Part shown: piece by piece, positions 33,561 to 37,401 of the stretch
How positions within the stretch are numbered: position 1 is the first letter of the stretch
Layout of the letters: every line of letters begins with the position of its first letter
Virus record (IMG/VR): IMGVR_UViG_2541047794_000002
Span: 1 to 51,929 of that record
From: a virus
Taxonomy: Duplodnaviria > Heunggongvirae > Uroviricota > Caudoviricetes
DNA length: 51,929 bases
Reading direction: 5' to 3' (one strand)
The notes under the pieces: generated by a model
What the model saw: the letters and a program-made list of their open reading frames with translations, nothing else
What the model was told of the DNA's origin: nothing
The model's database searches: none
Position numbers and translations under genes: made by a program

Positions 33561-33902
33561 ATGGCTACTCATTACACTGAACTCATGGCTGGCACTGAAG
33601 CACTGGTTACTACGTTGGGGATATTTTCAGCTAATAAAGGGGTAATTCCTGCATTTACGCCACTGATGCAAGAAGATGCAACTGGTGCACTGGTGGTATG
33701 GGATGGAACGAGCGCAGGCAAAGCTGTTTATGTTTCCGCTGTACAAATCGATACAGCGACAAAAACGCAGGCTCAGGTTTATAAAACCGGCGTCTTAAAT
33801 GTTGATGCTCTGAACTGGCCTGAGTCTGTAACACAACTATCAGCAAAAGTTGCTGCGTTTGTTGGCTCAGGTATTTCTGTTCAGCCGCTGGCACGTGTGT
33901 GA
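33561..33902 (+). CDS. Decoration protein homolog (lambda gpD-like)
   Basis: 113 aa, similar length and motifs to gpD (LVVWDGTSAGKAV...YKTGVLNVDALNWPE), directly after the capsid gene as D-E are paired in lambda. Confidence 0.7.
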   Translation: MATHYTELMAGTEALVTTLGIFSANKGVIPAFTPLMQEDATGALVVWDGTSAGKAVYVSAVQIDTATKTQAQVYKTGVLNVDALNWPESVTQLSAKVAAFVGSGISVQPLARV

Positions 33903-33911
33903 GGTACGAGA

Positions 33912-34256
33912 ATGATTGAAAGAGATAGTCAGCTACGAGAGCTATTAGATATCGATGACAAAATGCGCTTAAGCGAGCGTCTTGTCGATATGAATCAGGT
34001 GATGGAACTTACAACCCTGAGTCGCCGTACACTGCTAAACCTTGAGGCTCGTGGAGAGTTCCCTGAGCGTGTGCAGGTTACGGAAGGGCGTAAGGCTTGG
34101 TATTTAAGCGAGGTTGTTGAGTGGATTAACAATATCCCGCGAGCATCAAACTATTGCCTCGTACCCACACCGGAAAAACCTGATGCGGCGTTATGCCTCA
34201 AGATTGAACGCGCCAGGCGTAATGCCCTGAAAGGGCGCAATAAGTTGATTGGTTGA
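33912..34256 (+). CDS. Second AlpA/excisionase-family HTH protein
   Basis: 114 aa; TTLSRRTLLNLEARGEFPERVQVTEGRKAWYLSEVVEWI fits the AlpA/Xis-type HTH. Confidence 0.6.
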   Translation: MIERDSQLRELLDIDDKMRLSERLVDMNQVMELTTLSRRTLLNLEARGEFPERVQVTEGRKAWYLSEVVEWINNIPRASNYCLVPTPEKPDAALCLKIERARRNALKGRNKLIG

Positions 34257-34261
34257 TGAAA

Positions 34262-34345
34262 TTAGGGCCCGCTCTGGCTGGCGGGTCCTTTCCGGCAATC
34301 CGGCAGACTACGGGGCGGAAGGCGCGCGGGTTTTCGCTATTTATG
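34262..34345. other. Element cos site, lambda-like (cosQ-cosN-cosB); cosN-equivalent GGGCGGAAGGCG at about 34313..34324
   Basis: GGGTCCTTTCCGGCAATCCGGCAGACTACGGGGCGGAAGGCGCGCGGGTTTTCGCTATTTATGA closely parallels the prophage cos at 18780..18850, with differences inside cosN. Confidence 0.75.
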
Positions 34346-34472
34346 AGCATTTTAAGGGGACTGGTGGTGGTTTTGTTGTTCGCTATATCTGTATGAATAA
34401 TAAGAGAAAAATACAATCAATACACCAACCTGAAACAGTAATTAAGTTGTGGTATCAATGAAATTACACCTG

Positions 34473-35000
34473 ATGAACAAAAAAAACATGGCAAAAAGTT
34501 GCCGTGTAAGCGCCACTGCGTTCGATAAGTGGGGAGTGATTCCCGTCGAGCGTAAGGGCCGTGAGGCGTTCTATGATGTTGCCAGTGTAATAGATAATCG
34601 GGTTAACAATGCAATCAGCCAGATTACAAACGAAACGGGCGATATTGATGACGATGAACTTTTACGCGTCAGGATCAGATTACTGACAGCACAGGCAGAG
34701 GCGCAGGAGCTTAAAAACGAGCGCGAACGCGGCGACGTTATTGATACAGAGTTTTGTATGTATGTTCTTTCCAAACTGGCGAGTCAGATTTCATCTATCA
34801 TGGACAGCCTGCCGCTTACCATGCAAAGGCGCTTCCCACAGATGACTCCGGCTATGCTGGATGGACTTAAAAAGGAAGTGGCTAAAGCCTGTAATGCCAG
34901 TGCCGGCGTTGCTGACAACCTCCCACAGATACTGGCTGATTATCTGATGGAAAGTACAGGAAACGTACCGGATAAGTTGCAGCTGAATAAGGATAAGTAA
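34473..35000 (+). CDS. Terminase small subunit homolog (Nu1 family) of the element
   Basis: From MNKKNMAKSCRVS...; central/C-terminal region aligns with Nu1 (ELKNERERGDVIDTEFCMYVLSKLASQISSIMDSLPLTMQRRFPQM vs ELKNARDSAEVVETAFCTFVLSRIAGEIASILDGIPLSVQRRFPEL). Confidence 0.8.
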   Translation: MNKKNMAKSCRVSATAFDKWGVIPVERKGREAFYDVASVIDNRVNNAISQITNETGDIDDDELLRVRIRLLTAQAEAQELKNERERGDVIDTEFCMYVLSKLASQISSIMDSLPLTMQRRFPQMTPAMLDGLKKEVAKACNASAGVADNLPQILADYLMESTGNVPDKLQLNKDK

Positions 35001-35011
35001 CGTAGTACGCT

Positions 35012-35287
35012 ATGACTGAATCCGAACTACTGAAAGTAATCTGCCATGCTGGTGGAGTCAGCCACCAGCATGACGAACAGGCCACGCAGCCGGGCAGTGT
35101 CACCGCTGAAAATTACGCTCGTGTGGTTGCTGAGGTTATGTGGCGTGACGGTATAGAACTGAACGGACAGGATTGCTTAGTCATCCGCACCAAAGTGCTG
35201 GCTATACTGGCAGCTAGGCGGAGGCAGGGACAACGCCAGAACGTTGCATCGTACCAGTGGAAGAAGCCTGACAGACTGCGGCGATAA
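35012..35287 (+). CDS. Hypothetical protein
   Basis: 91-aa ORF downstream of terS. Confidence 0.35.
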   Translation: MTESELLKVICHAGGVSHQHDEQATQPGSVTAENYARVVAEVMWRDGIELNGQDCLVIRTKVLAILAARRRQGQRQNVASYQWKKPDRLRR

Positions 35288-35689
35288 CTCTTTGATTTTC
35301 TCGACGGCCCCAAAATGGGCCTTACCATAGCCAGCTAATAAATGAGCAAGCCTCAAAAGTGAGGTTTGTGGCCGTTTGGCCTATTCATATGCTAACTCGT
35401 TGATATTCCTGACGACGCAAATTTACGCCTTGTGGCTGGTAGTCGAATTGCAAATTTGCAACTCGACTATGAAACTACCTGTAGTTTGGGTAGTAAAAGC
35501 AACACACTGATTTTGGGGCTTCTTCGCGATACCTAATATTATGGTATCGGTGGAAGAGATATCGTTTCTCATAGGTTAGCACCGAGGGCGGAGTTCCGCC
35601 CTCATCGAAAAATTGCTTACGAGTCGTCAAAATAAATTAATCGACTGAGTATAATGATTAACTAATTGCTCGTGTTACTTCATTATACG

Positions 35690-36451
35690 TTATTTCCCAT
35701 CTTTAAGGTTTAACCAAGTGTTAATTAAAAAAAGAGCCATTGAGCCTGATAAATTTACTGCAAGTTCGGCATGCCTTGGGGATGGCTTAATTGATGAGCT
35801 GTTCGTTCCATGTGCATCACCGAGTTTATTACGAAGAGTACCTAACCCATTTACAACTGCAGAACAACCGCCGAGAATTTGTTTGAAGATATTTTCAGTA
35901 TGTTGGTCGGCAGATAGGTTAAGTTCTTTTGAAAGAGTTTTATAAAGCTCTGACATTTCAATATTTTTATTATTATACTGAATGCCCATATCATCAAGAA
36001 TGTGTTTGCAAACTGTTTCAAGAAGTGTTCTTGCGGAGGTTATCGCACCATCCGGATCTGTATGGCGCCGTTCAAGTGCTTTTATCCAAACGGCGTGGAC
36101 TCCATCCTCGTTAAACTTTCTTAATACATCAGATATGTCTTCATCCGCTGGAGCTTTATTTTTCCCTTCTAGATAGTCCAGCATCGGCTGAAATGCCTTA
36201 TAAATCAAATCTCTCCGGGGGGCATACTTTTCAGTCTTTTTTATAAATCCCCAAAATTCTTTTAGTGAGCGATTAGTTCTCACAAACTCTGGTAATAGCT
36301 GATGTAAAGGAGGATTTTGTAAGAAATATGTTCTTAGAAGCAAATAATCATTATTAGCTTCATCCTGGGCTCCTGTAGCTCTTGCAATTAGTATGTTTTG
36401 AAGCGCTACTGCGCGCTCTAGGTCATTTTGAAGGGTATCTATAATATTCAT
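35690..36451 (-). CDS. Predicted abortive-infection-type protein with C-terminal HEPN-like R-x6-H motif (Abi_C/AbiJ-like); candidate anti-phage cargo
   Basis: 253 aa, AT-rich, opposite strand, at the right end of the element. C-terminal LRNKLGDAHG contains an R-x6-H motif as in HEPN RNase domains. Confidence 0.65.
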   Translation of the reverse strand: MNIIDTLQNDLERAVALQNILIARATGAQDEANNDYLLLRTYFLQNPPLHQLLPEFVRTNRSLKEFWGFIKKTEKYAPRRDLIYKAFQPMLDYLEGKNKAPADEDISDVLRKFNEDGVHAVWIKALERRHTDPDGAITSARTLLETVCKHILDDMGIQYNNKNIEMSELYKTLSKELNLSADQHTENIFKQILGGCSAVVNGLGTLRNKLGDAHGTNSSSIKPSPRHAELAVNLSGSMALFLINTWLNLKDGK

Positions 36452-36610
36452 AACAAATCTTTATTCACTTCATTTGTGGGTTGATAATTGAATGGTTTGT
36501 ACATTGATTTCTGTGTATTGCAGTGTGTATTGCAACATAGCCATTCAGGTAGAGATTATGCTCTATTTTTCCTCTTATATCATTCACATACTTACACCAT
36601 TGACTCATGT

Positions 36611-36620
36611 AGCCGAAGCA
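36611..36620. repeat. Right copy of the 10-bp direct repeat AGCCGAAGCA (att core, right junction)
   Basis: Identical to 25173..25182; followed by E sequence resuming in frame (HEVNPQMTL...). Confidence 0.75.
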
Positions 36621-37401
36621 TGAGGTGAATCCGCAGATGACCCTGCGTCGCCTGCCGGATGAAGATCCGCAGAATCTGGCGGACCCGGCTTACCGCCGCC
36701 GTCGCATCATCATGCAGAACATGCGTGACGAAGAGCTGGCCATTGCCCAGGTCGAAGAGATGCAGGCAGTTTCTGCCGTGCTTAAGGGCAAATACACCAT
36801 GACCGGTGAAGCCTTTGATCCGGTTGAGGTGGATATGGGGCGCAGTGCGGCAAACAACATCACACAGTCCGGTGGCACGGAGTGGAGCAAGCGCGACAAG
36901 TCCACGTATGACCCGACCGACGATATCGAAGCCTACGCGCTGAACGCCAGCGGCGTGGTGAATATCATCGTGTTTGATCCGAAAGGATGGGCGCTGTTCC
37001 GTTCCTTCAAGGCCGTCAAGGATAAGCTGGATACCCGTCGCGGCTCTCATTCCGAGCTGGAGACAGCGGTAAAAGACCTGGGCAAAGCGGTGTCTTATAA
37101 GGGAATGTATGGCGATGTGGCCATCGTCGTGTATTCCGGACAGTACGTGGAAAACGGCGTCAAAAAGAACTTCCTGCCGGACAACACGGTGGTGCTGGGG
37201 AACACTCAGGCACGCGGTCTGCGTACCTATGGCTGTATTCAGGATGCGGACGCACAGCGCGAAGGCATTAACGCCTCTGCCCGTTACCCGAAAAACTGGG
37301 TGACTACCGGCGATCCGGCGCGTGAGTTCACCATGATTCAGTCAGCACCGCTGATGCTGCTGGCTGACCCTGATGAATTCGTGTCCGTACAACTGGCGTA
37401 A
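36613..37401 (+). pseudogene. E: Major capsid protein E, 3' fragment (no start codon; separated from the 5' fragment by the element)
   Basis: PKHEVNPQMTLRRLPDEDPQNLADPAYRRRRIIMQNMRDEELAIAQ... to the end matches lambda gpE residues about 80-341; an in-frame TAG lies immediately upstream. Confidence 0.85.

Follow-up and report, generated by a model that had tools for sequence, protein, structure and literature searches.

The 253-aa protein encoded at the right end of a phage satellite in this window is probably a stand-alone, single-chain defence protein of the abortive-infection type, a reading to which we attach a probability of about 0.65. It would combine a C-terminal HEPN ribonuclease of the AbiJ/Abi_C kind with a separate helical part formed by the N-terminal 98 residues. 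The window is the whole stretch of 51,929 nucleotides that was analysed (IMG/VR record IMGVR_UViG_2541047794_000002), and it represents an Escherichia coli lambdoid prophage. Judged by its sequence, the protein belongs to the Abi_C/AbiJ HEPN clade through its C-terminal domain and is predicted to cut RNA, and we infer for it an anti-phage activity. Both the satellite type and the idea of immune systems borne by PICIs are already established, and the gene, called abi here, is a further case. The features of the gene and its product are as follows.

35690-36451, minus strand: abi gene, 253 aa, ATG start (ORF list)
Residues ~100-253 of the product: HEPN (Abi_C) domain of the AbiJ clade, with R207, N208, D212 and H214
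35807-35833, minus strand: catalytic motif R-N-x3-D-x-H-G, ending at G215; the R207 and N208 codons occupy 35828-35833

The ORF list contains the same minus-strand frame that the sequence-only reading had singled out. It is not a chance reading frame, since a word-indexed search returned 5,746 database homologues (best E = 9e-165) and near-identical copies occur in complete E. coli genomes. The ATG start is supported as well, because the full-length homologues in the alignment begin at the same residue. The gene had further been described as lower in GC than its neighbours and as lying between the packaging genes and the right junction, and both descriptions agree with what was computed here. 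The ORF has a GC content of 0.382 and a GC3 of 0.287, compared with 0.46 for the satellite minus abi and 0.48 and 0.55 for the left and right prophage flanks. Along the GC profile, values of 0.38-0.40 over 35500-36500 follow 0.47-0.50 in the preceding satellite genes and give way to 0.53-0.59 on the right. The gene comes after a Nu1-like small terminase gene (terS, 34449-35000) and a 91-aa ORF (35012-35287), and 162 bp separate it from the right att core.

Profile searches bore out the earlier proposal of an HEPN/Abi-like protein. Residues 168-243 match Pfam Abi_C (PF14355) over profile positions 2-82 of 83 with E = 1.3e-23 and 83.3 bits, well above the gathering cut-off of 24, which places the protein within Abi_C. 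The PADLOC AbiJ profile matches residues 129-243 (E = 2e-21) on positions 162-274 of 281, that is, with its C-terminal half only; as this covers about 40% of the profile length, standard tools might not call the protein AbiJ. Neither full-length similarity to lactococcal AbiJ nor any of the named AbiJ N-terminal domains tested (NTD3/4/5) was found. The NCBIfam profile search gave nothing above threshold, the best hit being STM4504/CBY_0614 with 17 bits against a cut-off of 150, and in PHROGs the full length matches a family of unknown function. An identical RefSeq protein, WP_001021158.1, already carries the name "abortive infection family protein"; a literature search with this accession returned no match.

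The R-x6-H motif that had been read in the stretch LRNKLGDAHG is present as L206-R207-N208-K209-L210-G211-D212-A213-H214-G215, with six residues separating R207 from H214. The motif lies within the C-terminal domain about 40 residues short of the protein end, not at the extreme C-terminus, and it conforms to the HEPN superfamily motif R-x(4-6)-H with a polar residue after R, here N208. R207, N208, D212, H214 and G215 are invariant in 40 close homologues. Across 151 sequences, each representing a 50%-identity cluster, R207 is kept in 148, N208 in 141, D212 in 145 and H214 in 146, and R128, D132, E145 and K149 are likewise conserved in more than 95%.

Structure prediction pointed the same way, the predicted model having an alpha-helical bundle fold of the HEPN type. 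The structure table, whose figures are unlabelled, lists 2hsb (11.7), 1ufb (11.3), sacsin HEPN (10.6), the HEPN toxin 5yep (9.5), Csm6 (9.1), AbiA (8.7), HepS (8.3), LsoA (8.0) and AbiV (7.1). The loop bearing H214 is the least confident part of the model, with pLDDT below 50 at residues 213-215. When solved structures were searched by sequence, with the single sequence and with a 40-sequence profile, no meaningful match appeared, the best hits being a designed repeat protein and unrelated proteins.

The N-terminal part of the protein is a domain of its own kind. Residues 1-98 are confidently modelled as a helical bundle, and a low-confidence linker at about residues 95-110 joins the two parts of the model. 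No Pfam family matched residues 1-98, AbiJ_NTD3/4/5 included, and when viral models were searched with this domain by Foldseek, no hit reached E <= 0.001. Many of the cluster representatives align only from about residue 82-100 on, with unrelated N-terminal regions. Two relatives that are 55-57% identical over the HEPN domain bear Pfam AbiJ_NTD3, and others at the same HEPN-domain identity bear other N-terminal domains. The N-terminal domain is also the less conserved part, with a mean top-residue frequency of 0.40 versus 0.61 for the HEPN domain. Anantharaman et al. 2013 (PMC3710099) described, for the AbiJ family, a single HEPN effector joined to N-terminal domains that can be exchanged, and proposed that these domains sense invader components and restrain the toxin. 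The swapping of N-terminal domains seen here fits their model of a single-chain Abi protein made of a sensor domain plus an RNase.

The gene resides in a helper-embedded PICI, which interrupts the major capsid gene E of the prophage. The following features describe the element and the surroundings of abi.

25172-36622, plus strand: host element, a helper-embedded PICI of ~11.45 kb (from ORFs, Pfam, the RefSeq annotation of a near-identical copy and the published type)
25172-25181: left att core AGCCGAAGCA, read from the sequence
36613-36622: right att core AGCCGAAGCA, read from the sequence
~34313-34360: lambda-like cos GGGGCGGAAGGCGCGCGGGTTTTCGCTATTTATGAG, just upstream of the Nu1-like terS
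35477-36480: abi cassette, 1,004 bp, GC 0.384, absent from the same-site satellite of strain GN06758
35560-35689, minus strand: abi 3' untranslated region with three hairpins (inverted repeats I3 and I4)
36452-36612, minus strand: abi upstream region, which is the right att arm

The insertion divides gene E at about codon 82 into parts at 24938-25181 and 36613-37401, a position that matches the published site E:Phage_cap_E:80. This type is the '11capE' of Tommasini, Mageeney and Williams 2023 (PMC10111431). Like the PICIs of that account, the present element is about 11 kb long, is inserted at about codon 80 of the lambda E cognate, is co-oriented with the late gene and follows the zone order of integration, dynamic, replication and late. 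Its gene order runs from int, AlpA, left cargo, DUF4222, primase and SSB to an E-like capsid protein, a D-like decoration protein, an AlpA-like HTH protein, cos, Nu1-like terS, the 91-aa ORF and abi. The cos at ~34313 is likely the packaging site of the satellite. What sets the element apart from the published '11capE' account is the added terminal abi cassette. Of the 46 complete E. coli genomes with this att arm, 41 have the cassette. The text of the 2023 paper (PMC10111431) describes no abortive-infection or defence cargo, and the words abortive, HEPN and cargo are absent from it. Related satellites of other E. coli strains sit in the prophage portal gene or beside clpS, and no gene is annotated at their corresponding end.

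The comparison with strain GN06758 defines the cassette. In the satellite of this strain (L013), CTATGAAACT (window 35467-35476) directly abuts the att arm at the equivalent of window 36481. Since precisely 35477-36480 is missing there, abi rides on a 1,004-bp AT-rich cassette. Among 5,426 complete E. coli genomes, 41 carry abi with 99-100% identity, always at the right junction. The family recurs at this kind of position in other elements. RM14723 (L019), another capsid-gene PICI, has a 57%-identical allele in the same right-end slot, and in fis-integrated PICIs of Klebsiella and Enterobacter, 68-70% identical alleles form the terminal inward-facing gene. At least three PICI lineages thus end in an allele of the abi family. 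The gene has the marks of PICI accessory cargo, lying inside the att bounds, varying among related satellites and differing in GC. The sequence-only reading had gone further, placing the gene in an accessory slot for anti-phage genes. The part of this claim that stood is that of a recurrent site for the abi family. A general, multi-system slot did not emerge, because the right-end slot is empty of annotated genes in all six abi-less relatives inspected (L013-L018); we therefore speak of a recurrent site for one gene family rather than of a demonstrated multi-system hotspot.

Several smaller observations concern the edges of these slots. Just left of the cassette boundary, at 35440-35469, lies the 30-bp near-perfect palindrome TAGTCGAATTGCAAATTTGCAACTCGACTA (RNA fold z = -5.75), whose right half is conserved in the relative with the empty slot; conceivable roles are those of operator, terminator or recombination site. 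At the RM14723 locus (L019 6886-7877), a 61-aa ORF with a GC content of 0.46 lies immediately upstream of the allele on the same strand and is unrelated to anything in the window or the other loci. On a metagenome contig with a fis-type PICI (L024 6408-8765), int and the abi homologue are divergent and their start codons lie about 370 bp apart. A circular form or a tandem integration is expected to look like this, with the abi upstream region inside attP.

Beyond PICIs, the family is large and occurs in many phyla: an exhaustive search gathered 3,440 clusters at 50% identity, 437 of them at E <= 1e-30. It is common on plasmids, with full-length copies on those of Vibrio, Burkholderia, Paracoccus, Pseudomonas, rhizobia and Paenibacillus, and abi homologues are rare in sequenced phages. 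A Klebsiella copy with 86% identity is flanked by an unknown 672-aa gene, an IS element and a SIR2_2 gene, a Pectobacterium copy adjoins ung and rpoD, and a 60%-identical copy stands alone among housekeeping genes in a non-mobile chromosomal spot. The SIR2_2 neighbourhood, the spread on plasmids and the end slots of other PICIs are settings typical of defence genes and favour the defence reading.

No obvious partner gene had been noticed in the initial reading, and the wider search agreed with this. The neighbours varied from each inspected context to the next. All ORFs within 2.5 kb of the gene were clustered across 80 loci, one species each, from Proteobacteria, Desulfobacterota, Chloroflexi, Acidobacteria, Campylobacter and others, and no neighbour family was common to more than 3 of the 80. 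Neither an MNT gene nor any other conserved antitoxin neighbour was found, which separates abi from toxin-antitoxin pairs of the HEPN-MNT type II/VII and from type III systems like AbiV/AbiF. Tandem Repeats Finder, used in the search for a tandem-repeat antitoxin RNA, reported a single tandem repeat, the integrase arm-site pair. Rfam gave no match at gathering level, and its E-value scan yielded only a chance miRNA match. Consequently, abi is a true stand-alone unit. Two small ORFs were considered as partners and rejected: the 47-aa ORF upstream of abi, because it belongs to the conserved att arm and is carried by the empty-slot relative too, and the 61-aa ORF beside the RM14723 allele, which has no counterpart in the window.

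By analogy, the protein would work like AbiJ and SadR. With AbiJ it shares a homologous C-terminal HEPN domain, a single chain in which an N-terminal domain precedes HEPN, and a stand-alone position on mobile DNA; it differs in its N-terminal 98-125 residues, which match neither the AbiJ profile nor Pfam AbiJ_NTD3/4/5. What has been reported for lactococcal AbiJ is limited to escape mutations in phage ssDNA-annealing proteins (PMC13064643). SadR of Staphylococcus aureus is an Abi_C protein with the motif RNEYGDAH that degrades RNA in vitro and blocks phages as well as plasmid uptake; its variants R225A, N226A and H232A lose both RNase activity and defence (PMC13590631, Nat Commun 2026). The likeness to SadR, drawn from motif and description, lies in the RNxxGDAH form (RNKLGDAH here), the single-protein make-up and the five residues from the polar residue to H, which is the commonest spacing among Abi_C proteins (PMC13590631). 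Both also fall in the class that has no recognised N-terminal domain, the largest in the survey of that work with 2,257 of 2,815 proteins (PMC13590631). Unlike the abi protein, SadR comes from a different phylum, is chromosomal and is linked to SCCmec absence, and its phage range and trigger are not transferable.

Precedents for single-protein HEPN abortive-infection systems on temperate elements are provided by HepS and Tha. Tha, from S. aureus prophages, is a non-specific RNase activated by minor tail proteins (PMC11087260). HepS, from the Gifsy-1 prophage, is a tetramer that is allosterically activated by J, the tail-tip protein of siphoviruses, and cleaves tRNAs in their anticodon loops, and its prophage escapes through its own non-triggering J variant (PMC13043305). 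No sequence similarity between the abi protein and HepS or Tha was detectable. HepS differs in being shorter than the abi protein and tetrameric, and Tha in having an Rx4H motif and a dedicated inhibitor, Ith. Furthermore, PICIs have been described as carrying abortive-infection and immune systems (PMC10085698, citing Fillol-Salom et al., Cell 2022).

The regions on either side of the gene bear on how it may be expressed. Its 3' untranslated region is strongly structured (RNA fold z = -3.7; none of 200 shuffles folded equally well) and contains the hairpin GAGGGCGGA/TCCGCCCTC at 35584-35603. This region probably ends or stabilises the transcript, although the lack of a U-tract after the hairpins means that it is not a canonical intrinsic terminator. 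The same hairpin was considered as the satellite cos and set aside, as it is part of the cassette and ~34313, upstream of terS, offers a far better lambda-like cos. On the other side, a pair of integrase arm-type repeats (TGTGTATTGCA twice, 36512-36534) precedes the abi start codon by 60-85 bp, and a matching pair is found near int in attL (25307-25330). Given their distance from the start codon, integrase binding could overlap the abi promoter region. A weak promoter-like site at 36583-36555 on the minus strand (9/12) is not above shuffled sequence, and the promoter and terminator scans of 35000-36800 as a whole did not outperform shuffled sequence. In orientation, abi is convergent with the satellite operon, which is co-oriented with the interrupted helper late gene and receives helper late transcription according to the 2023 paper (PMC10111431). 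Read-through of this transcription would run antisense to abi.

Under the reading as a stand-alone abortive-infection protein, a promoter within or adjoining the att arm would drive constitutive expression of abi in the lysogen, and the gene product would be held inactive, probably as an HEPN dimer or tetramer restrained by the N-terminal domain. A component of an infecting phage, on being met by the N-terminal domain, would switch the protein on. The activated HEPN domain may then cleave rRNA, tRNA or bulk RNA, growth would stop before the phage completes, and sister cells carrying the satellite and the helper prophage would be protected. More speculatively, abi expression may fall when the helper is induced, since late read-through driven by the helper would run antisense to it; the integrase arm sites upstream and the structured 3' untranslated region could likewise contribute to lower expression during induction.

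Other roles for the protein can be weighed against the same evidence. Since abi adjoins the capsid, decoration and small-terminase genes of the satellite, and since alleles of the family recur at the end of several PICI lineages, one might suppose a helper-interference factor, an RNase that after induction damps helper late expression and lets the satellite capsid and terminase win packaging. We regard this as quite improbable: the gene runs against the late operon behind an upstream region of its own, and it is thus not co-expressed with the late genes, the family is common without satellites (on plasmids, in defence islands and in many phyla), and there are same-site satellites that lack it. 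An addiction or stabilisation toxin, which would keep the satellite and hence the helper prophage by killing cells upon loss or excision, appears very improbable. Such a toxin needs a labile antidote for post-segregational killing to be possible, whereas the neighbour, tandem-repeat and Rfam searches yielded no antitoxin; moreover, the family also occupies non-mobile chromosomal spots among housekeeping genes. Some HEPN proteins, such as those of the MtlR type, lack RNase activity, and the present domain could by the same token be non-catalytic, the protein binding or regulating instead. This seems extremely improbable, as the R-N...D-H-G residues are near-invariant across distant relatives and the same motif is catalytically essential in SadR (PMC13590631).

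A more specific version of the defence reading makes this Abi_C subfamily a cargo dedicated to enterobacterial PICIs, where its placement would serve as a safety catch and its N-terminal domain would sense a late protein of competing lambdoid phages. We consider this version unlikely as it stands, and it draws on the following geometry. The att-proximal, inward-facing placement (160-175 bp from the att core) means that abi becomes divergent from int once the element is circular. Together with the antisense read-through and the arm sites upstream, this placement suggests that the RNase could be switched off exactly when helper and satellite are induced. If true, a switch-off based on placement would solve self-targeting without an antitoxin.

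The stand-alone abortive-infection reading adds a concrete case to two themes, namely that phage satellites carry anti-phage genes, as in the PICI-encoded immune systems reportedly described by Fillol-Salom et al., and that single HEPN proteins sense and abort infection. A satellite located inside the capsid gene of its own helper faces a sharp self-targeting problem, which makes this E. coli element convenient for asking how an element avoids triggering its own Abi protein. The case is modestly interesting for its unstudied subfamily, its distinct N-terminal domain, which belongs to no known family, and its recurrent att-proximal placement in PICIs, and it does not overturn current understanding.

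Further observations concern the rest of the satellite. A second AT-rich cargo gene (26880-27416, minus strand, GC 0.315) follows int and alpA and encodes an apparently membrane-spanning protein of 178 aa, which matched no Pfam family above gathering (DUF443, 19.2 vs 26.2 bits) and no PADLOC family. In strain AST216, the left slot holds a different gene annotated as 'putative phage abortive infection protein', and this slot looks like the more variable of the two. The SSB ORF (31974-32246, plus strand) encodes 90 aa that match only positions 49-101 of the Pfam SSB profile, relatives being 141-149 aa long, and the satellite SSB is probably truncated or frameshifted in the window copy. Finally, AAAGCCCTCTACC occurs in three exact copies at 31309-31481, downstream of the primase gene, with spacings of 87 and 73 bp; these copies are candidate replication-origin iterons.
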